Assembly (NCBI GenBank): GCA_048938385.1
Contig: JBHLMG010000025.1
Location: forward strand, 1 to 33,179
DNA: 33,179 nt
Reading direction: 5' to 3'
Source of the DNA: Promethearchaeota archaeon
GTDB taxonomy: Archaea; Asgardarchaeota; Hermodarchaeia; Hermodarchaeales; Hermodarchaeaceae
Both the position numbers and the translations under genes were made by a program. Below the pieces are notes generated by a model. The model searched no databases. It was not told the origin of the DNA and saw only the letters and a program-made list of their open reading frames with translations. Shown here piece by piece: positions 485-23,324 of the stretch; the stretch's first letter is position 1; the number at the start of each line of letters is the position of its first letter.

Positions 485-1966
485 TTAACGCTTCTCTAGT
501 TCTTCGATTCGGGTTAGGGTCCATCTGCCCTTTTCGGTTAGGTCATAGTAGTGTCTGAGGGATTTGCGATAGGTTTGCACAGAGCGGGTTCGTGTAATAA
601 GGCCGGAGCGTGTCAGTTCGTTCAAATGCTGGTACACACTAGTTACAGAGACTTCGACGCCCGTTTTGACCATCAATGTTTTCCAAATGGCATAGCCATA
701 CGATTCTTTGCTCTGGAGGATCTTGAGGATGTGGAGTTTGGTTTCCCCAATTTTTGTTGTGTATTTTCGTTTTTCAACGCGACCTAGAAGTTGTTCTAAG
801 GTTCTATGGCCTTTCACGATGATTTGGGCGATTTCTGGGTATTTTAGTCCCATCCCGGTAATAACGCAGATGATTTTGTCTCCTGGTTCAATCGCCTGGT
901 CTCTAACTATTTGATATAACGCGGCAACGGTTGCCGCTGATGCAGGTTCAGCAAACACTCCCTCCGAACTTGCCAATGAACTGACAGCGTTTAAAATTTC
1001 ACTATCTGAAACTGAAATGGTGAAGCCCTTGGATTCACGAATTGCCTCTATGGCTAGTTTTCCACACGAAGGGTTCTTCATTCCTATATCAATAGCGATG
1101 GTCGTCGTCCTTGTTGAAGGTTCCACGGTGGTGCTGCCTTTTTGGAAGGCGCTAACAATGGGGGCACAACCTTTAGCTTGTACGCCGATGAGTTTTGGCA
1201 GGGGCTTTTCCATCCATCCAAGTAATTGTAATTCTTTAACCGCCTTCCAAATCATTGAGATGTGGCAACCATTCCCCATTGGTACAATTATCCAGTCTGG
1301 GGGAATCCAATTTAGCTGTTCACAAATTTCATAGCCGGTGGTTTTAATGCCCTCAAGAAAGTAAGGACTATGACCGATGATCGGGTGGGCACGGTGCGCC
1401 TGTTCTTGAATTCGGACCTCTCCCTCCTCCCGATTTTTTACGATTTCTAGATTTGGTTGATAGGCGATTATTTGGTAGAGTTTGCCAATATCGACTCTTT
1501 GGGGAACAAATACTTGGCTTTTCATTCCGGCTTTTGCAGCGTATGCAACAACTGAGGCTGCTAGATTACCTGACGAGCCGCATGAGACAGTTTTGAAACC
1601 AAGCTCCTTCGCTTTTGATATTTCAACGCTTGTTCCGCGGTCAATGAAGGATCCTGTTGGGTTGGTGGTTTCATCCTTCAAGTAGAGGTATCGCAAGCCC
1701 AGCTTCGTGGTCAGGCGGTCGCATTCATGCAGAAAGGTCCCTCCCTCACCCAAAGAAACCAAGTTCCGTCTATCTATTACCGGAAGCAATTCAAAATACT
1801 TCCAAACTCCAGGTTCTCTGCTTGTCACGGAGGAAATGTCAATTTGGTTGCGGATCACCTCAAAATCGTAAACGACCTCGAACACACCCCTACATTGAGG
1901 ACACACCTGCGATGGAGGAGTGTGGTCTTTTTCCAAGCCACACTTTGAACATCGTAGAATTGGCAT
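485..1966 (-). CDS. Threonine synthase-like (fold-type II PLP) protein lacking the catalytic Lys, fused to C-terminal PadR-like winged HTH
   Basis: N-terminal CxxC..CxxC, SLGEGGT, KDETTNPTGSFIDRG (canonical NPTGSFKDRG), SSGNLAAS, PMGNG, EPASAATVA, TGMGLK; C-terminal ILKILQSKESYGYAIWK..SVYQHLNELTRSGLI..RHYYDLTEKG is a PadR-type wHTH. Confidence 0.92.
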   Translation of the reverse strand: MPILRCSKCGLEKDHTPPSQVCPQCRGVFEVVYDFEVIRNQIDISSVTSREPGVWKYFELLPVIDRRNLVSLGEGGTFLHECDRLTTKLGLRYLYLKDETTNPTGSFIDRGTSVEISKAKELGFKTVSCGSSGNLAASVVAYAAKAGMKSQVFVPQRVDIGKLYQIIAYQPNLEIVKNREEGEVRIQEQAHRAHPIIGHSPYFLEGIKTTGYEICEQLNWIPPDWIIVPMGNGCHISMIWKAVKELQLLGWMEKPLPKLIGVQAKGCAPIVSAFQKGSTTVEPSTRTTTIAIDIGMKNPSCGKLAIEAIRESKGFTISVSDSEILNAVSSLASSEGVFAEPASAATVAALYQIVRDQAIEPGDKIICVITGMGLKYPEIAQIIVKGHRTLEQLLGRVEKRKYTTKIGETKLHILKILQSKESYGYAIWKTLMVKTGVEVSVTSVYQHLNELTRSGLITRTRSVQTYRKSLRHYYDLTEKGRWTLTRIEELEKR

Positions 1967-1988: not shown

Positions 1989-2010
1989 TATATAAGTAAT
2001 TACTTATATA
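1989..2010. promoter_or_regulatory. Perfect 22-bp palindrome TATATAAGTAATTACTTATATA; candidate operator overlapping TATA-box position
   Basis: Exact self-reverse-complement, separated by 22 nt from the ATG (1966) of the ThrC-like/PadR gene, in a divergent intergenic region. Confidence 0.75.
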
Positions 2011-2148
2011 GTGCCTTCATCCTCCTTCACCTTGCTGGGGTTGTCTAAAGTGACTACGATACAGCTCAATTCGCCTAAAGAAGAAAGTATTGAATTCTCA
2101 CAACCTAGGGTTCTCAATGCCTATTCGGGTTGGGGTGTACGCAATTTT

Positions 2149-2664
2149 GTGTTTTATCGGTCAACTGTGTTTTTTGCGCTCACAATTGTATTTACGGCGT
2201 TGACGACGGTTGCGACGCTTTTGCTTGTTATCCCTTTCCCTGCGACTTCTGGGTACTTCAACTTGGGGGATTCACTGGTAATGATCAGCGGTCTCCTTTT
2301 GGGTCCAGTTGGAGGGTTCATAGCTGGTGGAACGGGGTCTGCTCTTGCAGATATGGTTGCATATCCTCATTTTGCTCCAATCACATTCATTGTAAAAGGC
2401 TGTGAAGGTTTGGTGGTCGGGCTATTTAGTCAGCAAATCAAAGCCGTGTCTCGAATTCACCTTCGTGATATCCTTGGTCTCCTGTTAGGTGCGTGTGTTA
2501 TGCTACTGGGGTACTTTGTAGCTGAGGCGTTTCTTTTTGGTTGGGAAGCTGCGTTACTGGAATTAGTCTGGGTGAATTCGATCCAAGTTACCGTTGGAAT
2601 ATTTGTCGCACTTTCAGTTGGGTCAGTTGTTAGGAAATATCTAGTTTCAGCTCTGGTTCTGTAA
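2149..2664 (+). CDS. ECF transporter S component (HmpT/PdxU-like group)
   Basis: IPFPATSGYFNLGDS..GLLLGPVGGFIAGGTGSALAD..APITFIVKGCEG; several TM helices. Start moved from 2011 to in-frame GTG 2149 with SD-like GGGGTG at about 2132-2137, giving 171 aa. Confidence 0.88.
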   Translation: MFYRSTVFFALTIVFTALTTVATLLLVIPFPATSGYFNLGDSLVMISGLLLGPVGGFIAGGTGSALADMVAYPHFAPITFIVKGCEGLVVGLFSQQIKAVSRIHLRDILGLLLGACVMLLGYFVAEAFLFGWEAALLELVWVNSIQVTVGIFVALSVGSVVRKYLVSALVL

Positions 2665-6027: not shown

Positions 6028-6897
6028 ATGATTCACAATGTTTTCATCATGACCCGAGATGGGCGCATTGCCTATCACCGTCAATATTGGCCAGTCGACA
6101 TCACTCCAGAAGACCGCCAAGAATTCATCGCTACTTACAAACAATTCGAAAGTGAACTAGGTCCAACTGTCGATCTCCCCATCCATGTGAAAAACATTAA
6201 ATTTCTCTACACCGATGCCGGTACTAACCTCCTCTTAGTCTTTGGTGTCGACATCTCTGATGAGGATGTAAAAATCCAAGAACACCTGAAAAAAGCCCGA
6301 GAACTCCTCGTCGAGAAATTCGGTCACGAAATTGATGCCTACATCCAAACCCCCGTTCCTGCTGGTAAAGCTTTCCTAGGTTTTGGCAAAGAGCTAGACG
6401 CTGTCATCGTGACCATGCTCAAGGTTTGCCTTCTTGGTCAAGGCGGTGTAGGCAAATCCACCATGCTCAAACTCCTTACCGCTGACAGCATCCCTGGCGA
6501 ATACTTCCCTACCATCGCCGTTGACATCGAAACTCTCAAAGGTGTGCGTTTTGGTCCCTATGAACTCGCTGTCTGGGATTTCGCTGGTCAAGACCGCTTC
6601 CGTTCCCTCTGGAATTACTACCTTCGTAACGCTGACGCCGTTCTACTCGTCACTGATTCCACTCTCAAAAATGTCCTTGAAACCCGCGATATCCTTGAAG
6701 TCGTCCGCAAAAATGCCCCCTCCGCCATTGTCTGGAGCATCGCCAACAAGCAAGATCTTCCCGGCGCGCTCGCCCCCAAACTCGTCCAGCGCATTCTAGG
6801 CGTCCAATCGTATGGTCTCGTAGCAATTGATCCCCGCTATCGAGAAACCCTCTACAAAATCATCATGGGTGCTGTCGCCGAAGCAACCACCGATTAA
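6028..6897 (+). CDS. Longin domain-Arf-like small GTPase fusion
   Basis: N-terminal MIHNVFIMTRDGRIAYHRQY (AP-sigma/longin-type start); G1 GQGGVGKS, G2 PTI, G3 WDFAGQ followed by RFRSLWNYY, G4 ANKQDLPGA (Arf-like context). Confidence 0.92.
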   Translation: MIHNVFIMTRDGRIAYHRQYWPVDITPEDRQEFIATYKQFESELGPTVDLPIHVKNIKFLYTDAGTNLLLVFGVDISDEDVKIQEHLKKARELLVEKFGHEIDAYIQTPVPAGKAFLGFGKELDAVIVTMLKVCLLGQGGVGKSTMLKLLTADSIPGEYFPTIAVDIETLKGVRFGPYELAVWDFAGQDRFRSLWNYYLRNADAVLLVTDSTLKNVLETRDILEVVRKNAPSAIVWSIANKQDLPGALAPKLVQRILGVQSYGLVAIDPRYRETLYKIIMGAVAEATTD

Positions 6898-10963: not shown

Positions 10964-12712
10964 GTGTTATTGTTGATGTCAGGTTCTATGAAGTCCTCTC
11001 AATCGTCTTTTCTCAAGTTGGCTAAAGTCTCTGAAGCCATCATGGGTACCACAAAGCGCCTTGAGAAAATGGATTTAGCAGGAGAGTTTCTCAGTCAACT
11101 CCCGGTAGACCAACTTGAAGCTGGTGCCCTTCTACTCATTGGTCGACCCTTTCCGCGAACAAGTCAACGAACCTTGGCAATAAATTGGTCAGCACTATAT
11201 CAGATCCTACGCGAGCTCCTTCAGCCAACTCCATCGTTGATTCATAAGCTCTTTGCCCAAACAGGCGATATCGGCGAGGTTGTTCACCAACTATACCTGC
11301 AGGCAGGCAATATCCGTCAAACGATGCTTTTTTCATCGCCACTGGAGATTACCGAGGTTGCTTCAACATTCACTGAAATGGCTGACATTCAAGGTGCAGG
11401 CTCTCGAAAACGAAAAACAACGCTATTACGGTCTTTGTTTACTCGCGCTCAACCGCTTGAAGCTAAGTACCTGGCAAAGCTACTAGTCGGGGATCAACGG
11501 ATTGGATTTAGCGTCGGAATGTTAGAAAGTGCAATAGCCCGGTATTTGAAATTGCCTTCAGACTTAGTGCGTCGAGCCAACATGCTTACAGGTAATATTG
11601 GGGAAGTCGCTCGAATCGCTTTTATAAAGGGAGCAGCTGGTCTACAGCAGGTCCGATTACAACCCTTCACACCACTACTTCCCATGTTAGCTGCTCAGGC
11701 AACCGATGTCAGTGACGCTCTACAAATCCATAATGGCACTTCGGCATTTGAAATGAAATTAGACGGTGCTCGCGTACAAATTCACCTACAACGCCAGAAT
11801 CAACGCTCAAATATCCGCATTTATAGTAGACGCCTGACTGATGTTACCACGAGTCTTCCTGATGTCGTGAACCTGGTTGCCACCGAAGTGAAAGCGCACA
11901 GTTGCATTCTGGAAGGTGAGGTCCTCGCAATCGGGGAGGATGGACGCCCACTACCCTTTCAACATCTTATGCGCCGGTTTCGACGTGTTCGCGACATCGA
12001 GGCCATGGTTCAAGAAATCCCTGTAACTTTACACCTCTTTGACCTTCTAATGCTTAATCAAGAGGTCCTCATCGATACAGCATATACTGTGCGCCGTCAG
12101 AAATTGGAACAAATACGAGGAAAAATTCCACTGGTCGATCAACTAATCACATCAGATGTCGATGTAGGAACCCAATTATTTGAGAAAGCGATTGAGGCAG
12201 GCCATGAAGGACTGGTTGCCAAACGCCTGGACAGTCCTTACCAACCTGGAATTCGCGGTAAGGCTTGGTTGAAAGTTAAACAAAGCATGGAAAACCTTGA
12301 CCTCGTTATCATTGCTGCTGAATGGGGTACAGGGCGCCGTCATAGATGGCTGAGCGACTATCATTTAGCTGCAACGGATCCTGAAACCGGTGAATTCCAT
12401 ATGTTAGGAAAAACCTTCAAAGGTCTCACTGATGCTGAATTCGCTGAGATTACTCAGCGCCTGTTAGACTTGAAAATCGAACAGACGGGCGGAATCGTGA
12501 CAGTACAACCTCAGATTGTGGTTGAGGTCGAATATGATGAAATTCAACGAAGCCCTACTTATAAGTCAGGAATGGCTCTGCGTTTTGCGCGTATTAAGCG
12601 CCTACGCTATGACAAGGACCCCAAAGAAGCTGATACTATCCATCGCGTTCAGGAGCTTTACGAGTCCCAATTTGAACGGAAGGCATCGTTGAATCGGGTA
12701 GGGCGAACCTAG
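10964..12712 (+). CDS. lig: ATP-dependent DNA ligase
   Basis: Motif I EMKLDGARVQIH, LEGEV, LFDLL, EGLVAK, WLKVK, LRFARIKRLRYDK; start could be ATG 10976 or 10988. Confidence 0.97.
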   Translation: MLLLMSGSMKSSQSSFLKLAKVSEAIMGTTKRLEKMDLAGEFLSQLPVDQLEAGALLLIGRPFPRTSQRTLAINWSALYQILRELLQPTPSLIHKLFAQTGDIGEVVHQLYLQAGNIRQTMLFSSPLEITEVASTFTEMADIQGAGSRKRKTTLLRSLFTRAQPLEAKYLAKLLVGDQRIGFSVGMLESAIARYLKLPSDLVRRANMLTGNIGEVARIAFIKGAAGLQQVRLQPFTPLLPMLAAQATDVSDALQIHNGTSAFEMKLDGARVQIHLQRQNQRSNIRIYSRRLTDVTTSLPDVVNLVATEVKAHSCILEGEVLAIGEDGRPLPFQHLMRRFRRVRDIEAMVQEIPVTLHLFDLLMLNQEVLIDTAYTVRRQKLEQIRGKIPLVDQLITSDVDVGTQLFEKAIEAGHEGLVAKRLDSPYQPGIRGKAWLKVKQSMENLDLVIIAAEWGTGRRHRWLSDYHLAATDPETGEFHMLGKTFKGLTDAEFAEITQRLLDLKIEQTGGIVTVQPQIVVEVEYDEIQRSPTYKSGMALRFARIKRLRYDKDPKEADTIHRVQELYESQFERKASLNRVGRT

Positions 12713-15700
12713 CTGGATAGTCTGATTTCCTTAGATGCAGAAATCCACCGTGGGCCAAGGGTTTGGTTGAATAGAGCGATGTAGCTAGCTTGGTCGCTAA
12801 CTATGGCTACGATTTCTCCTTGGTTGCCATAAGTGGGAGCGATGAGGACCTCTTCACCATCTCGTGACCCCCCATAAAATTCCATGTTGGGGTTATCCCA
12901 AATACGGATGTTACCCTGTTGCAAAAGCTTTTGGGCTGCTGTTCGCTGCTTTTCTCCGTCAAGAGTCGTAATGATGTGTACGCGGTTCTGTGGTCGCACT
13001 TTGGATAATTCATCGATTGGTACTTCATCAAAGGATGGATACACTAAGGTAACGGTTGCGTTGACACGTCGGAACATATCTAGTAAGTGATTCTGAATTC
13101 CTTGGCAGGACACTATTCGCCAAGTTCTTTCCGCTTCTGCAGGCTGAACGCCTGTAAGGGTATCCCACAAACTTGTCAGAATCTGTTCCGTATCACTTGC
13201 ATGTTTCCGGAGCTCGTCTAACAGGGGTTCAGTCTTCTGAGTAAACAGTTGAAGAGTTTTTATCGAATTAGTTACGGTTGAGCTGAAGTTCGAGGTCATG
13301 TCCTTTGAGAGTTTCTGGTGTTCAGTTTTTAGGGTGGTTCGTTCTTTACTCAAGGCTCCACTAACGCGATTACCTGTCTGCTGAGCTTGGGTTACTAGAC
13401 CCTCTTCCACGGAGCTAATGTTTTGCTTGAGCGCGGCTTCAACAGCTGTACTCCTTTGTTGAAGCTCCGTTGTTGCAGTGTCTTTGAAGGCTTGTAGGTT
13501 CTCAGTAGTATGACGGATACTATCATCGGTAGCGCGGGTCAACCGGTTCTTTGTCAAATCCAATTGTTGAGTGTAACTTTGGAAGGTTTGTTCAGTTTCC
13601 TGACTTATACTGTTGTTGAATTTTTCGACATCTTCTTCAATTGTCGCACTAGTATCTGAGAAGAGTTTGTCAACCTCTGTAGAAAGGGTGGAAAAGTTAG
13701 TCGTTAGAGTTTGTATGAGCACATCTGAAGTTGTCTTGGCTTTTTCGTCAATGGAGGAAAGGCAATCTAATACCTTTAATGTGAGTTGTTCGGTTTCACC
13801 GGTGACAGTGCTCTGTTGGGTTTGAGTAATCTGTGCACTCTTTGAGATGGCTTTGGAGAGAGTATCATCGAGGTCTGTTTTGATCTGGGCGCTGCTGAGA
13901 TCAAGTTTCTCTTTTCCTTCATCTTTCCATTTAGATAGTTGGGTGACAACATTTGTTTGTGAGGTGGATATTTGCTCAATCAGGGATTCGAGAGCAGACG
14001 AGACATCTTTGTCAATTGATGTATGCTGCTCATCAAGGACGCTAATTAGATCCTCATGGTATGTTTGAATCCGATCCTGTAATTCGGTTTCCAAAGCTGT
14101 TCGGTTAGTTTTAATTTTGTCAACCAGTTTTGCTGCAACAGTTTGAAGTTGTACGATTTCTTGCTGAAGGTTATTGATGTACTGTTCCGTTTCATCGGAT
14201 AATGTGCTTGCAAAGGTTTCAAGGTGTTTTTTAATGGCCATGTGTTGCTGATCGATATTTGTAGTGCAAGCTTGTCCAATCTCTTCAATAATATTCTGAG
14301 CGCTTTGAAGTTGATTTTGCTGGAAGTTTTCAAGCCCCGTTTCGATCTCTCCAATTCCTTCGATTATTTTTGAGCTCTGTTCGAAAATTAAATCCTGAAT
14401 GCTTTTGCTTAGGTTTTCGATGCGTCCTTCCTGTTCCTCTAACTCGGTTTCGATATTTGCTACAAAGGCATCAGCGGGTTCACGAATTCCTCCAAGATTG
14501 GAGGTTACCGTTTTGATATCTTCAGCCATGGTGTCCATTTTTTGATTCAAAGAGGTTTTTTGAACAGCAACCTCTTGACTGAGGGTTTCCAACATACCTT
14601 GGGTCTCTTGAAGTTGTGAAACCCAATCTTCTTGCATTTTATTGAAGCCTTGAGTGATTTGTTCCTTGACCCCTGTCTTTTCTCGATCAAAAGCCTGGGC
14701 AGTAGCCGTCAACAAGTTGCCTACATCATCCTCAAACATCGTCATCGCTGTTGCTGTGTTCACCATCGTCTGGTCAACTGAAGTAGTGATGGCGGTGCTC
14801 AAGGCATTGAGATTAACAGCAGTAGTGGTGGAGTATTCGTCAATGAAGTAAGTGAGGGGAAGCCAATGTTTTTCTGTAAGGGCTTTGGAATCTGCGTCGA
14901 ATTTTTCCCACTCCTCGCTTAGTTCGGTTCCTGTGCCTTTTAGAATCGGTTTGATCTTAGGCACTTGGTTTGTGTAGAATTCTTTGAGTTTTGGAAGCAG
15001 TTGTTTCGCAAGAGTGCTTTCTAAGGTAGTGAGGAAAACAGGGCTTATTTGAGATTCTACTTCTGTTCGTGTTTCCTCGAGGGTTCTACGAGTGTCTTCA
15101 ATCATTTTTTCAGTGGTGTTTTGGAGGGCAGTGGAGATCGTCTTTGTCAGCGTTTCAGCGGTGTTTATGCCTTTACGTTGGGCGTTCAGAGACTGAAGTT
15201 CTGCTTGAATGTTGGTGACAAATGTTTGTAGTAATTGTTCAAATGCGGATTTGACTTCTTGGACTGGAGAATATACTGTGGCGACTTGATCGTTAAGTTG
15301 TTGTTCGTATACTTCTAAGAGTATTTCATTAGGAACCTGCTCTAAGCTAGTCAGGGTGGATTTGAAAATTGAAGAAACTTGTTTGGCACGGTCGGTCTGG
15401 GGAGTGAGTTGTGCCTCAAAACTTTGGAAAATATTTGCGATTTCTTGTTTGAGTTTTGAAGAAAGAGTTTTGTTGCTTGGTCCAAGAATTTGGTTTGTAG
15501 TTGTTTTGATTTGTTCCAATGTGGTTCTAATCAACTTGTCAATTTGTTTCCTGCGTCGAATCTGTCTTCCCACTTTCCTCTTACAATCCTGAAGAATAGA
15601 TGAAATTTTTTCTTGTAGTGTTTGATCAACCAAAGAGGTGAGGCGGTCGTTGGTCTGCCGTTGAACCGAAGCTAGTTTCTCTCGAATTCCTAAAAAGAGG

Positions 15701-18093
15701 GCGTCTAGCTGCTTAGAATGCTTGGATTGTTGGGCGGTGAGAGTTTTTTGCACTTGAGTTGTAATGTCTTGCACATTTGCTTCGATTGTATTGGTAATTT
15801 CGGTACTTACTGTCTTCTGCACCGCGGCTGGAAATTGTTCGTTGATTTTTGAGAATGCAGCAGAGATAGTTTGCAGCTCTACGGCTTCTAACTGAGTTTG
15901 CTTTTTCTTCTGATAGGTCAGAAAAGAAGCGAGGCTATATTCAGGAATTAGTTCAGAAAGAACGGTGTTTAGATCATTAATCAATTGTCTGTCTCGTTTG
16001 GATACCTGAGTCGAGAGTCTTCGAAGGGCTTTGGAAGCGGCTTTTTCACGACTTTCTGTCAAAACCTCAAGCGCTGAGGGGTAATTCGTCATCGCTTTTT
16101 TAATTCTATGAAGCTGTTCTTCACGAAGTGTTTCAGCAGTATTTCTGATGCCCGCCGAATATTCGTTAAAGGTAGCTTCAAGCTGAGAAATTTCCTGTTG
16201 AAGTGCGCTCGTGGCACTTGAAGTGATTTTCTTTAATTCGGTTTTGAAGCTCTGCAGTTGCTTATCAACCACTATTTGAGCAGCTGTAGATTTTGCAAGG
16301 TTATCGCTCGCTGCTTGGGTTATCTCCTTGCGCATCTTGCGAAGACGGTCCTTGACGAATTGGTCGATTTGTCCTTCTATGCTTAATAGGGTCTGAAAAA
16401 TCCCAGAAGCCTCTTGATTTAAGAGTTTTTGAGTTCGTTTGGTAAGCGTTCGGTTTTGTTCCTCTTGAAGGGAGATTTTTGCTTGAAACTCGGTAATAAA
16501 CGATTCAGTGATTTTCCTTATAGTGGCCAACCGCCGTTTCAAGCGTTTACCAACTTGATCAGCTATATCCTGGAAACTCGTAGAAAGGGTTGATTGTTGT
16601 GTTCTAAGAGTTTCAGTAAGTTTCTGCAAAATAGTTCGCATTTCAAGAAGCTGTGCTAAGTAAGTATTTTTCAACTGAATGTTGAATTCTGACTTGCCTG
16701 TTTTGAGGAGGCGGTCGTGTTCAGCTGCCACTTGTTCTATTAGGGTGGATAAAACGGATTGTATTTTTGCGAACTGGCTAAATTGGAGAGCTTTTGGCGG
16801 CCATTGCGAAATAGTGGCTTCCGTTTCTTTTAACATACTTTGCGTTGCTGTATTATTGGTGTTAACTGCGCTAATCAAAGATTTGTGGAGGTTCTCTGCG
16901 CTTTGAATGGACGCTTCTTGTATTGCTTTAATTTCAGTTTCTGTGACTGTTGCAATTTTTTCTGTGTTTTGTGTCAGCTTTCGTGTTTCCCTATTGAAGG
17001 TTTTTTCCAGTTCCGTAGTAATCTGATCCAACATCTGTGAACGCTTCTTCAAAGCATCTCGAAGGCTCCCATCAATTGCATTGAGATCTTTTGTTAAGGT
17101 TCGTTCGAGTTCTTTTTGGAAGGTAGCAAGAGCTTGTTGGACTTGCTGATTGAAAAGTTGAATTGAATTATTCAAAGATGTAGTGGTTTCTTCTACGAAG
17201 TCGGTGATAGACTCTCTTTGAGAAGTGATCTCCGATGTTATTGCCGTAATACCTGAGTTAGTGCTGCGTTGATGAATCGACTTGGCGTCTTCAAGGTTGG
17301 CCGTGGTGTGTTTCGTTAATTCAGATGACTGTTCCAAAAATCGACTGGCCGTAGAAGTAATCCAGTTTTCAGCTTCCTCATAGTGTGTTTGTATAGCCTT
17401 TTCTGCGTCTTCTAAAGCTGATTTTTGGCTCTCTTTTAATTGGGTTATTCCTTCTTCGATAATCTGAATTAATGACTCCTGTAACCCCGTCGTTTGGCTG
17501 GAGAACTCATCAATGCTAGTATCAGATAATTTTGTTAAAGAGCTTTGTAGATTCTTTGCAACATTGCCTAGCTCAATTTTCGTTGTCATCGCCACTTCAT
17601 TTAATGAAATTCCTTGGCGTTCATTGAGGCTGTCTAAAGTGGTCTTTGTCTCTTTTAACAACGAGTCCAATTGAGCTTGAAAGTCGATAAGCATTTTCTG
17701 CTGAAGTTGTTGGAGTTGTTTCCATGAGGTTTCAGTTTCTGCAGCAAAAGCCTGAACCTCGTTTGCCAGTTCCTGATATGGGGCGAAGGCTCGATAGCGA
17801 GCAACGACACCAGGTAGGGGTTTAATGAGGTGCTTCTTTTCTAGAGCCTCTAAAGTTGAAGAAAGCTTCGCGAAGGGCACGCCCGAATAGAGACTGGTCT
17901 CGTCTTGTGTAAGCTGACCCATAATTAGTAGAGCGGAATAGACCTTGCTTTGGGATTCAGTTAATTTAAAACGAGATTGCATTACTTTGAGTAATTCGGG
18001 GGTGGTCTCAAATGGTAAGGGGCATTGGAGAGTACCGGATTCCTTCTCCGGCGAATTAGTGGGGTTGGTTTTATTCTCTTCTGGCGTCATCAC
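12709..18093 (-). CDS. Giant TrmB-like protein: N-terminal wHTH, about 1550-aa helical/coiled-coil region, C-terminal PLD-like TrmB effector-type domain
   Basis: KLTESQSKVYSALLIMGQLT..SGVPFAKLSSTLEALEKKHLI..RYRAFAP (TrmB wHTH); long Q/E/L/T/S-rich, Pro/Gly-poor middle; C-terminal NHLLDMFRRVNATVTLVYP..VHIITT..SRDGEEVLIAP..AIVSDQ. Confidence 0.85.
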   Translation of the reverse strand: MMTPEENKTNPTNSPEKESGTLQCPLPFETTPELLKVMQSRFKLTESQSKVYSALLIMGQLTQDETSLYSGVPFAKLSSTLEALEKKHLIKPLPGVVARYRAFAPYQELANEVQAFAAETETSWKQLQQLQQKMLIDFQAQLDSLLKETKTTLDSLNERQGISLNEVAMTTKIELGNVAKNLQSSLTKLSDTSIDEFSSQTTGLQESLIQIIEEGITQLKESQKSALEDAEKAIQTHYEEAENWITSTASRFLEQSSELTKHTTANLEDAKSIHQRSTNSGITAITSEITSQRESITDFVEETTTSLNNSIQLFNQQVQQALATFQKELERTLTKDLNAIDGSLRDALKKRSQMLDQITTELEKTFNRETRKLTQNTEKIATVTETEIKAIQEASIQSAENLHKSLISAVNTNNTATQSMLKETEATISQWPPKALQFSQFAKIQSVLSTLIEQVAAEHDRLLKTGKSEFNIQLKNTYLAQLLEMRTILQKLTETLRTQQSTLSTSFQDIADQVGKRLKRRLATIRKITESFITEFQAKISLQEEQNRTLTKRTQKLLNQEASGIFQTLLSIEGQIDQFVKDRLRKMRKEITQAASDNLAKSTAAQIVVDKQLQSFKTELKKITSSATSALQQEISQLEATFNEYSAGIRNTAETLREEQLHRIKKAMTNYPSALEVLTESREKAASKALRRLSTQVSKRDRQLINDLNTVLSELIPEYSLASFLTYQKKKQTQLEAVELQTISAAFSKINEQFPAAVQKTVSTEITNTIEANVQDITTQVQKTLTAQQSKHSKQLDALFLGIREKLASVQRQTNDRLTSLVDQTLQEKISSILQDCKRKVGRQIRRRKQIDKLIRTTLEQIKTTTNQILGPSNKTLSSKLKQEIANIFQSFEAQLTPQTDRAKQVSSIFKSTLTSLEQVPNEILLEVYEQQLNDQVATVYSPVQEVKSAFEQLLQTFVTNIQAELQSLNAQRKGINTAETLTKTISTALQNTTEKMIEDTRRTLEETRTEVESQISPVFLTTLESTLAKQLLPKLKEFYTNQVPKIKPILKGTGTELSEEWEKFDADSKALTEKHWLPLTYFIDEYSTTTAVNLNALSTAITTSVDQTMVNTATAMTMFEDDVGNLLTATAQAFDREKTGVKEQITQGFNKMQEDWVSQLQETQGMLETLSQEVAVQKTSLNQKMDTMAEDIKTVTSNLGGIREPADAFVANIETELEEQEGRIENLSKSIQDLIFEQSSKIIEGIGEIETGLENFQQNQLQSAQNIIEEIGQACTTNIDQQHMAIKKHLETFASTLSDETEQYINNLQQEIVQLQTVAAKLVDKIKTNRTALETELQDRIQTYHEDLISVLDEQHTSIDKDVSSALESLIEQISTSQTNVVTQLSKWKDEGKEKLDLSSAQIKTDLDDTLSKAISKSAQITQTQQSTVTGETEQLTLKVLDCLSSIDEKAKTTSDVLIQTLTTNFSTLSTEVDKLFSDTSATIEEDVEKFNNSISQETEQTFQSYTQQLDLTKNRLTRATDDSIRHTTENLQAFKDTATTELQQRSTAVEAALKQNISSVEEGLVTQAQQTGNRVSGALSKERTTLKTEHQKLSKDMTSNFSSTVTNSIKTLQLFTQKTEPLLDELRKHASDTEQILTSLWDTLTGVQPAEAERTWRIVSCQGIQNHLLDMFRRVNATVTLVYPSFDEVPIDELSKVRPQNRVHIITTLDGEKQRTAAQKLLQQGNIRIWDNPNMEFYGGSRDGEEVLIAPTYGNQGEIVAIVSDQASYIALFNQTLGPRWISASKEIRLSS

Positions 18094-21299: not shown

Positions 21300-23324
21300 A
21301 TGACTTCCATCAATGATGATGAATTACTCTACACTCCTGCTGAAATAGCATTTCGTCAAAAAACCCGTAACTTTGTCGATCGTGAAATTCAACCTGTGAA
21401 GGACCAGATTGAACTTCGAGCCTTCGACTATCGCGCGTTTTTCAAGAAACTCGCGGATGTTGGCTTTTCAGGTCTGCTAATACCTGAGGAATATGGTGGG
21501 TCAAATAAACCCTTCATGTATCAACTAATTGCTGGTGAAGAAATTTCAGCGGTATCGCCTTCGGCGACAATGATGTTTGGGGCAAGCTGCACGCTTAGCG
21601 CTATTCCGATTCTCCGATTTGGTACAGAAGAACAAAAGCAGAAGTACTTGGTTCCCCTTGCGAACGGTGATAGTATTGGCGCGCTCGCCATTACTGAGCC
21701 AGCGGTAGGAAGTGACACGGCTGGGATGGAAACCAACGCGGTCTGGAATGAAAGGAAGAATTGCTGGATCCTGAATGGCGAGAAACGGTATATCACCAAT
21801 GGGAGTATTGCAGATCAAATAGTTGTTTTCGCAATTACCGATCCTAAAGTAGACAGCAAAAGCGGTATGTCTGCCTTTATAATCGAAACCACATGGGAGG
21901 GATTCTCCGTTGAACGAGAATTCACGCTCATGGGTCGGAGTGGAGTGTTTAATTCACATATTAAATTCAATAACATGCAAATTCCTAAAGACAATTTACT
22001 CGGAAAAATAAACCAAGGCTTCCTCATTTTAATGGATGAACTAGATTCCGAGCGCATAGGAATTGCTGCTGAGGCTTTAGGATGTATGCGGAAACCCTTC
22101 GAAATCGCAGTCGATTATTCCACGCAACGCATCCAATTTGACCAGCCAATTTCCCGTTTTGAAGGCGTTTCCTTCAAAATTGCTGATATGGCAACAAAAA
22201 TGCGTGCAGCACGACTCTTAGTAATTACTGCAGCTCGAATGATGGAAAAAGGACTTGCATGCACTAAAGAAGCGACCATGGCAAAGCTCTTTGCAACGGA
22301 AGTCTCCATCGAAGTGTGTGATCTTGCCATCCAAATCTGTGGAGGTGCTGGTTATGTCAAGGATTACTTCCCGCTTGAGCAATACTATCGAGATGCTCGA
22401 CTCGGCACTATTGGTGGGGGCACCTCTGAAATAATGCGGTTTTTAATTCAACGGGAAGTGTACATGGAACACAAGCGTGGAAAAGCACATGAAGGTTTAG
22501 TTCCCGAACTTGACGAATTAACCTTCGGTGCACTTATGGCAGCTATTCCCAATGGATTCCGTCCTGAACGCGCGCAAGGAGTCTCTGCCCGTATTCAGTT
22601 TCTATTTTCAGATGCAGAGCCGTGGCTGTTGACAATTCAGGATCAAAAGTGTATCGTCGAACAGATGACAACCAAGGAACCGACGATGACGATCCAAACA
22701 GATACCCAAACCTGGAAGAACATACTCGTAGGTAAATTAGATGCTATGCAAGCAATGACGGTAAAAAAGGTCACCATCGACACCGAGGATATGAATCTTT
22801 TACTTAGATTTGCTCGAATGTTTCGATTTTCTCCTGAAATATTCTATGGGCTTGAAAAAACGCGGGTTCTTCCTTCCCCTCCTTCTACCGAATCAAAATA
22901 CCAACTGGGTAAGAGTCTAAATGAAATCCAGATTGGAGATTTAGCACAAGGATCGATGACTGTCACCGTAGATCAAATCGAATGGTATGCGAAAATGTCA
23001 GGCGATTTCAATCCTTTGCACATGGATGATGACTATGCAGCGACAACCATGTTTGGTCGGCGTATTGCTCATGGCCCCATCGGTGGTGCATTGGTTGCCC
23101 GTGTTATTGGAATGCAACTACCAGGACTGGGCACTATCGCCTATAACATGAAGGTTAATTTCACTGCTCCTGTGTATCCGGGAGATGAACTCACAGCCAT
23201 TGTAAAAGCAACAGAAAAAATCCCTGAAAAGAATCTCCTCCGCCTTAGCTTCAATGTGACCAATCAAAACGGTTTAGAAGTTATGAATGGCTATGCTAAT
23301 GTTCTTCCACCCGTGAAATCATAA
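21300..23324 (+). CDS. Acyl-CoA dehydrogenase-SCP2 sterol/lipid-binding-MaoC (R)-enoyl-CoA hydratase fusion
   Basis: ACAD: AITEPAVGSD, LNGEKRYITNG, RIQFDQPI, YRDAR..IGGGTSEI; SCP2: FRPERAQGVSARIQF..GKLDAMQAM; MaoC: SGDFNPLHMD..FGRRIAHG..LPGLG..FTAPVYPGD. Confidence 0.93.
   Translation: MTSINDDELLYTPAEIAFRQKTRNFVDREIQPVKDQIELRAFDYRAFFKKLADVGFSGLLIPEEYGGSNKPFMYQLIAGEEISAVSPSATMMFGASCTLSAIPILRFGTEEQKQKYLVPLANGDSIGALAITEPAVGSDTAGMETNAVWNERKNCWILNGEKRYITNGSIADQIVVFAITDPKVDSKSGMSAFIIETTWEGFSVEREFTLMGRSGVFNSHIKFNNMQIPKDNLLGKINQGFLILMDELDSERIGIAAEALGCMRKPFEIAVDYSTQRIQFDQPISRFEGVSFKIADMATKMRAARLLVITAARMMEKGLACTKEATMAKLFATEVSIEVCDLAIQICGGAGYVKDYFPLEQYYRDARLGTIGGGTSEIMRFLIQREVYMEHKRGKAHEGLVPELDELTFGALMAAIPNGFRPERAQGVSARIQFLFSDAEPWLLTIQDQKCIVEQMTTKEPTMTIQTDTQTWKNILVGKLDAMQAMTVKKVTIDTEDMNLLLRFARMFRFSPEIFYGLEKTRVLPSPPSTESKYQLGKSLNEIQIGDLAQGSMTVTVDQIEWYAKMSGDFNPLHMDDDYAATTMFGRRIAHGPIGGALVARVIGMQLPGLGTIAYNMKVNFTAPVYPGDELTAIVKATEKIPEKNLLRLSFNVTNQNGLEVMNGYANVLPPVKS

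Follow-up and report, generated by a model that had tools for sequence, protein, structure and literature searches.

A threonine synthase homologue lacking the Schiff-base lysine and fused to a PadR-type winged helix: a candidate vitamin B6-responsive transcription factor in Asgard archaea

A 33,179-nucleotide stretch of DNA from a Promethearchaeota archaeon of the family Hermodarchaeaceae (contig JBHLMG010000025.1, positions 1 to 33,179; the whole stretch is referred to below as the window) encodes a ThrC-PadR protein, in which a threonine synthase (ThrC) fold without the lysine that forms the Schiff base with pyridoxal 5'-phosphate (PLP) is followed by a PadR-type winged helix-turn-helix (wHTH). 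Based on sequence comparison, gene context and a structure model, we propose that this protein would be a vitamin B6-responsive, self-regulating transcription factor whose sensor is a catalytically dead ThrC domain, and we put the probability of this reading at roughly two in three. Somewhat less firmly, we think it probable that the family is the missing B6 regulator of Archaea: a PLP pseudoenzyme which gave up its Schiff-base lysine for reversible binding, and whose PadR domain, together with an operator conserved across phyla, would set B6 uptake (through an energy-coupling factor (ECF) transporter of the PdxU/HmpT type) or B6 synthesis (pdxST) in Asgard archaea, Bathyarchaeia, Nitrososphaerota and other archaea.

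The Schiff-base lysine and the cofactor pocket

The original prediction, made from the DNA letters of the window, had read an isoleucine in place of the catalytic lysine. The reading was correct: codon ATT at 1645-1643 encodes residue 108, within T-N-P-T-G-S-F-I-D-R-G-T, and HMMER alignments placed Ile108 opposite the lysine of NPTGSFKDRG in the ThrC-fold structures 2zsj, 6cgq, 1uim and 2d1f. The remaining motifs of fold-type II PLP enzymes are retained, as had also been claimed: SSGN at residues 131–134, PMGNG at 229–233, EPASA at 340–344 and TGMGLK at 370–375. We searched 5.8 billion proteins and aligned the best 120 homologues (48–100% identity). All of them combined the Pfam families PALP and PadR, and they came from Thor-, Hermod-, Loki-, Odin- and Sif-type Asgard archaea and from some Bathyarchaeia. 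In the lysine column, 106 of them have Ile, the other 14 have Leu and not one has Lys; the flanking N-P-T-G-x-F-x-D-R-G was essentially invariant. The objection that the isoleucine is a private mutation or a sequence error fails on this count, with the lysine kept in 0 of 120 close homologues; judged by this alignment, Ile108 is neither chance nor a sequencing error.

The fusion itself is widespread, with at least 586 loci found in a scan of one genome per species; the best of these was from Candidatus Hermodarchaeum yapensis (81% identity). For a survey of lysine-column types and gene neighbourhoods we used 81 loci, in which genes were called crudely and then clustered. The fusions in these loci fell into three types. 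The window's own type has the motif NPTGSF-x-DRG, with Ile, Leu, Met, Val or Asn in the lysine column; a Bathyarchaeia type, found in 32 loci, has NPTNSF-R-DR, with Arg; and a third type has NPTNSF-K-DR, with the lysine itself (L040, L046, L057, L062, L064, L065, L074, L077, L082 and L083). The presence of the wHTH in the Lys-type Bathyarchaeia fusions was shown by alignment and by PF03551 matches, and a separate search, in which 118 of 120 proteins had Lys, revealed that the Lys-keeping Bathyarchaeia ThrC-PadR clade is large. Thus, when the ThrC-wHTH homologues were scored at this position, loss of the lysine stood for the close ones, which never have Lys, but did not extend to the distant Bathyarchaeia fusions, which have Arg or still Lys. 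In a maximum-likelihood tree the hydrophobic (I/L/M/V/N) type formed one clade of 32 loci with a support of 99 in the Shimodaira–Hasegawa-like approximate likelihood ratio test (SH-aLRT); the tree was made by a quick method and is unrooted, and the order of the Lys, Arg and Ile/Leu states was not read from it. The Lys fusions, their Arg-bearing sister type and the Ile/Leu fusions make up a natural series that leads from a possible enzyme-regulator to a pseudoenzyme.

We then used the HMMER alignment to relate the pocket residues to the numbering of T. thermophilus ThrC and counted them over 121 sequences, the 120 homologues and the query. The equivalents of Asn87 (Asn134; 120/121), of the loop Gly187–Asn191 (G231-N232-G233-C234-H235, with G231 and G233 in 121/121) and of Thr317 (Thr370; 121/121) are retained. 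We take these residues, whose numbering we checked, to be the O3' contact, the phosphate loop and the ring-nitrogen contact of ThrC, respectively. Asp109-Arg110, directly after the lysine position, is kept in 120–121 of the 121 sequences. A second set of positions has changed: Thr88 is replaced by Leu135 (117/121) and Arg160 by Phe203 (120/121), Asn154 falls in a gap, and Ser155 has become Gly. In T. thermophilus ThrC, Thr88, Asn154/Ser155 and Arg160 presumably bind the phosphate of O-phosphohomoserine (from work on 1V7C, for which the numbering was likewise checked). The domain as a whole is strongly conserved, with a mean column identity of 64% and about 80 invariant columns, and is therefore under selection rather than decaying.

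The PadR match covered residues 413–485 and profile positions 1–74 of 75 (PF03551; E 3.4e-13; 49.8 bits against a cut-off of 27), in agreement with the earlier claim that a PadR-type wHTH follows the ThrC fold. The AlphaFold (AF2) model of the protein had a mean predicted local distance difference test score (pLDDT) of 85.6, and the structural check that had been proposed returned a confident ThrC fold and a confident wHTH. With Foldseek the top structure was the ThrC 2zsj (E 2e-27; template modelling (TM) score 0.85 by target; 41% identity). The C-terminal domain is modelled as three helices (404–419, 424–435 and 441–453), a beta wing of two strands (457–464 and 470–476) and a C-terminal helix (478–492), and a flexible linker at 399–406 lies between it and the ThrC fold. 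Tyr445, Gln446 and His447 in the third helix are invariant in the homologue alignment. At the other end of the protein the four zinc-ribbon cysteines are also invariant, and the model has strands at 3–6 and 28–32. Two NCBIfam models of ThrC scored above their cut-offs, PRK08197 (NF006050; 328.6 bits against 303, spanning residues 4–384) and TIGR00260 (202.5 bits against 167.1), and it is because scores exceed these cut-offs that relatives carry the public name “threonine synthase.”

A second gene of the ThrC family lies at C23:225698-226702 in the genome from which the window derives (2.48 Mb, 89.8% complete, 51 contigs). Its length is 423 aa, its motif is NPTWSFKDRP and it has no wHTH; it exceeds the cut-offs of both PRK08197 and TIGR00260. 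A search of the genome for a separate intact thrC thus yielded a Lys-bearing member of the family. All the computational checks proposed with the original prediction spoke for it.

The candidate operator and the vitamin B6 genes

The regulator gene and a divergent gene for an ECF-transporter S component are separated by a perfect 22-bp palindrome (Table 1), which we consider a candidate operator. Its distance is 22 nt to the ATG of the regulator and 39 nt to the GTG at which the S component probably starts. At this locus it represents an inverted repeat, ATATATAAG-N6-CYTATATAT, that is matched by a 27-nt position weight matrix (PWM) at 1985-2011. Such a palindrome is expected 0.00 times by chance in the window. 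In loci of Asgard archaea, Bathyarchaeia and Nitrososphaerota, the inverted repeat precedes the regulator by 3–53 nt. When we allowed at most 5 mismatches over the 21 defined positions, it was present in 25 of 29 upstream regions of the window's subfamily versus 1 of 190 other upstream regions in the same loci, which served as controls. The lone control match came from L020, a locus in which the regulator stands two genes from the S component and lacks a motif; the match precedes the S-component gene. In a PWM scan of the 2.48-Mb genome, the palindrome was the sole site of at least 20 bits (29.5 bits).

The next-best PWM site (C2:160932-160958; 18.2 bits) was considered as a second regulon member and dropped, as it has no B6 link; it is in a divergent region between a 468-aa gene without a Pfam match and a GNAT acetyltransferase gene. 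The inverted repeat is missing from the Bathyarchaeia loci of the Arg and Lys types. Arg-type Bathyarchaeia loci (e.g. L038, L042, L043, L048 and L054) have another recurring upstream word, AACCGATAAA(A)G, which may be that subfamily's own operator or promoter element.

The S component is of the PdxU/HmpT type, and its sole relative among solved structures was chain S of 4hzu (HmpT/PdxU2; E 1.7e-16). Its Pfam family, PF07155, includes the B6 transporters PdxU and PdxU2/HmpT (PMC9997740), and HmpT of L. brevis was shown to transport pyridoxamine (PMC4860826). Of the HmpT pocket residues named in the latter study, the S component has Y120, N140 and Q143 unchanged, with conservative replacements at E41 (Asp) and W76 (Phe). 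The longest open reading frame (ORF) of the S component opens at GTG 2011, abutting the palindrome; the start it has in common with its closest orthologue (in L007) is GTG 2050. Use of GTG 2050 would leave the gene a leader of about 30 nt.

An S component adjoins the regulator in 58 of the 81 loci. In Bathyarchaeia the two genes share a direction and the S component lies downstream; in the Asgard loci and some others the arrangement is divergent. Elsewhere the neighbours are genes of PLP synthase: pdxS and pdxT adjoin the regulator in L024, L025 and L059, and pdxT does so in L021. In a sample of 151 Asgard genomes, pdxS and the regulator occurred together in 4 and were adjacent in 2, divergently in G051 and as an operon in G017. 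The operator motif is present in both adjacent cases: in G017 it precedes the regulator-pdxS operon (19.2 bits), and in G051 it lies between pdxS and the regulator (28.2 and 24.2 bits). In G048 and G058, which have a weaker regulator homologue (41–44% identity) and a distant pdxS, there was no motif near either gene. The original prediction had left the ligand between a B6 vitamer and an amino or phospho-amino acid; this gene context narrows the predicted ligand to vitamin B6.

Among 18 other genomes of the window's family, the regulator was found only in G101 (82% identity). The orthologous S component (72%) was likewise found only there, adjacent and divergent, with the operator in between (30.5 bits). 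The remaining genomes of the family had only paralogous S components (~50% identity), and the two that were scanned had no motif upstream of them. This shared presence and absence indicates that regulator, operator and target move as one cassette.

The gene pdxS was present in 25 of the 151 sampled Asgard genomes (9 of 72 of high quality) and lacking in 126 (83%), and it was found in 0 of 14 other genomes of the window's genus. This low frequency suggests that auxotrophy for vitamin B6 is widespread in the phylum. We did not find pdxS in the window's own genome at its 89.8% completeness, and B6 uptake therefore matters to this archaeon; the genome has three EcfT genes. Eleven genomes with the regulator beside an S component were checked, the window's own and ten others, and pdxS was absent from each. 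This absence fits auxotrophy with regulated uptake but is not discriminating, because 83% of Asgard genomes lack the gene.

In about 30 Bathyarchaeia loci (e.g. L030:2108-3115 on the (-) strand, L034, L036 and L041), the S component is followed by a gene of the AIR-synthase family of ~335 aa. It is nearest to HypE and ThiL, scores below every cut-off, and lies downstream of an Arg-type ThrC-wHTH gene. The window's own genome, in which no PdxK exceeds the cut-off, has a copy with 40% identity at C23:290729-291709. The protein could be an unrecognised vitamer kinase.

Table 1. Features of the regulator locus, in window coordinates.
Feature	Coordinates	Strand	Residues or sequence	Basis
Lys-less ThrC-PadR gene	485..1966	(-)	493 aa; stop codon 485-487	ORF list and translation
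Zinc ribbon, N-terminal	1868..1966	(-)	residues 1-33; Cys6, Cys9, Cys22, Cys25	alignment, model strands, NCBIfam
Fold-type II PLP (ThrC) domain without Schiff-base lysine	854..1759	(-)	residues 70-371	PALP (PF00291), E 8.5e-67
Codon at the catalytic-Lys position (Lys61 of T. thermophilus ThrC)	1643..1645	(-)	ATT = Ile108	HMMER alignment
PadR-type winged helix-turn-helix, C-terminal	491..757	(-)	residues 404-492	PF03551 and model secondary structure
Candidate operator, perfect 22-bp palindrome	1989..2010	(.)	TATATAAGTAATTACTTATATA	between regulator and S-component genes
ECF-transporter S component, PdxU/HmpT type, divergent	2050..2664	(+)		PF07155, E 8.7e-32

Three other genes of the window were noted. 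An ORF of 1794 aa at 12709-18093 (-) starts with a TrmB-type winged helix (E 3.2e-09) and continues as a very long helical, coiled-coil-like region, which has a sub-threshold match of the apolipoprotein type. At 6028-6897 (+), a 289-aa protein has a small GTPase domain of the Roc/Arf/Ras type at residues 131–261; eukaryote-like small GTPases are common in Asgard archaea. A 674-aa fusion at 21300-23324 (+) combines a complete acyl-CoA dehydrogenase with SCP2 sterol-carrier and MaoC-type hydratase domains.

Proposed mechanism and alternative explanations

In the mechanism we propose, the ThrC fold keeps what holds the ring and phosphate of PLP and has lost, along with the Schiff-base lysine, the residues for the phosphate of O-phosphohomoserine. 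A B6 vitamer would then be bound non-covalently and, because the lysine is lost, only reversibly, such that the sensor would report its free concentration. The likeliest ligand is PLP, as the product at the end of the pathway. The PadR wHTH, presumably in a dimer, would bind the 22-bp palindrome, which overlaps TATA-like elements of both divergent promoters. The ligand-loaded protein would most likely repress both genes, giving feedback on B6 uptake together with autoregulation. Elsewhere in archaea, where regulator and operator precede pdxS/pdxT, synthesis would be shut off instead.

Several observations weigh against this proposal. The S component scores below every NCBIfam cut-off, and PF07155 also covers riboflavin and other S components; on sequence, B6 as its substrate is a candidate and not proven. 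The AIR-synthase-family neighbour in Bathyarchaeia could point to another cofactor. Leu and Tyr occupy positions 135 and 203 in some Lys-bearing zinc-ribbon paralogues, and the changes at these two positions alone do not prove that substrate binding was lost. The repeat is mostly TATA-like, and its conservation could partly reflect a promoter and not an operator. Across the 151 Asgard genomes, the presence of the regulator does not track the absence of pdxS (4 have both, with ~6.5 expected). Finally, we infer the ligand from context only, and the dimer, its binding to DNA and the direction of control are likewise predicted.

The protein might regulate the adjoining transporter in response to a ligand other than B6, such as a pyrimidine or thiamine precursor, another vitamin, or an amino or phospho-amino acid (O-phosphohomoserine or threonine). 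Hydroxymethylpyrimidine was the substrate first predicted for HmpT-type S components (PMC4860826), and PF07155 takes its name from riboflavin S components. The AIR-synthase-family gene of the Bathyarchaeia loci reaches 87 bits with ThiL, short of the cut-off, and the sensor fold descends from an amino-acid enzyme. Nevertheless, the transporter for which hydroxymethylpyrimidine had been predicted carries pyridoxamine (PMC4860826), and in L024, L025, G051 and G017 the regulator and operator directly precede pdxS/pdxT. In addition, the positions in contact with PLP are near-invariant, while those for the substrate phosphate are now Leu and Phe. We therefore regard a ligand other than B6 as unlikely.

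We give less credence still to the idea that the palindrome is merely a pair of back-to-back TATA and transcription factor B recognition elements (BRE), with the wHTH serving general DNA binding, dimerisation or protein contacts and the protein not acting as a specific regulator of the adjoining gene. Both arms are indeed TATATA-rich, like archaeal TATA boxes. However, the motif goes beyond a TATA box in its AAG and CYT flanks and its fixed 6-nt spacer, and it is conserved across Asgard, Bathyarchaeia and Nitrososphaerota. A promoter element would also sit poorly with a single site of at least 20 bits in 2.48 Mb, with 1 match in 190 control upstream regions, with the missing motif upstream of the paralogous S components in the two regulator-less genomes scanned, and with the invariant Y445-Q446-H447 in the third wHTH helix. 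Least probable, and in our judgement very improbable, is a protein which is still an enzyme, through another residue or an external aldimine, and binds DNA as well. The hydrophobic residue that replaces Lys in 120 of 120 close homologues, the replaced substrate-phosphate positions and the Lys-bearing ThrC paralogue in the same genome all argue against such a bifunctional protein. What speaks for it is that the curated TIGR00260 and PRK08197 cut-offs are exceeded, that RbkR provides a precedent (PMC5397151), and that a bifunctional ancestor is conceivable, given the lysine kept in 118 of 120 proteins of the Bathyarchaeia fusion clade. A B6-responsive regulator with a dead sensor thus remains our preferred explanation.

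Should the wider reading hold, with the family as the missing B6 regulator of Archaea, it would be a convergent counterpart of bacterial PdxR, and hundreds of proteins listed in databases as “threonine synthases” would be transcription factors. Because annotation pipelines label these proteins “threonine synthase,” threonine biosynthesis is predicted too often in metagenome-assembled genomes. The family is a concrete candidate with a predicted operator and predicted targets, and its Lys/Arg/hydrophobic series could show the change from enzyme to sensor. Given how scarce pdxS is in Asgard archaea, the extent to which they depend on partner organisms is probably shaped by B6 uptake and the way it is controlled.

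Comparison with known systems

Full-text literature searches returned no description of a ThrC-PadR regulator, and no regulator of B6 homeostasis in Archaea was named in the literature searched. A 2023 survey of PLP synthesis and salvage lists only bacterial PdxR-type regulators and three known B6 transporters (PMC9997740). At the level of protein models, NF004170 (PRK05638, “threonine synthase,” 442 positions) already covers a ThrC fold with a C-terminal wHTH. The query aligned to it over residues 4–485 with 315.8 bits, against a cut-off of 421; the Bathyarchaeia fusions reached 415 (Arg-type) and 380 (Lys-type). The equivalog name omits the DNA-binding domain and may propagate mis-annotation.

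With threonine synthase (EC 4.2.3.1) the protein shares the fold, most motifs, the Cys4 ribbon and the positions in contact with the PLP ring and phosphate. It differs in having Ile/Leu for the Schiff-base Lys, Leu/Phe for T88/R160 and an extra C-terminal PadR wHTH, and its gene sits with genes of B6 uptake or synthesis and not with threonine genes. By these sequence features it is a ThrC homologue and not a functional member of the ThrC family.

The closest functional analogues are bacterial. PdxR, MocR and GabR likewise use the fold of a PLP enzyme as a sensor fused to a winged helix. Regulators of the MocR/GabR type join a GntR wHTH to a domain resembling a fold-type I aminotransferase, and PdxR controls pdxST and genes of B6 salvage and uptake (PMC5320631, PMC4944035). 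In contrast to these, the archaeal protein has a fold-type II and not a fold-type I domain, a PadR and not a GntR wHTH (GntR was not among the Pfam matches of the protein), placed C-terminally and not N-terminally, and it has no Schiff-base lysine, which MocR keeps. The likeness to PdxR is convergent, and the two are not homologous as fusions.

The PadR family (PF03551) has in common with the C-terminal domain the winged helix and the helix that follows it. Inverted-repeat operators are typical of characterised PadR proteins, as with the candidate operator here. Those proteins have ~110–180 aa and bind their ligand between the wHTH and the C-terminal helices, whereas in ThrC-PadR a 380-aa enzyme fold would serve as the sensor.

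Within Archaea there are regulators built along similar lines. ThiR, a ThiN fold with a DNA-binding domain, is an archaeal enzyme-derived vitamin regulator. RbkR, a riboflavin kinase with a wHTH (PMC5397151), likewise joins a sensor of enzyme fold to a DNA-binding domain and has vitamin genes adjacent and a conserved palindromic operator. The folds of RbkR and ThiR are unrelated to that of ThrC-PadR and the vitamin is different; moreover, RbkR is an active kinase, whereas the ThrC-PadR sensor is without its catalytic residue. By its sequence and gene context, we would nonetheless place ThrC-PadR as a protein of the same kind as these archaeal enzyme-derived vitamin regulators.

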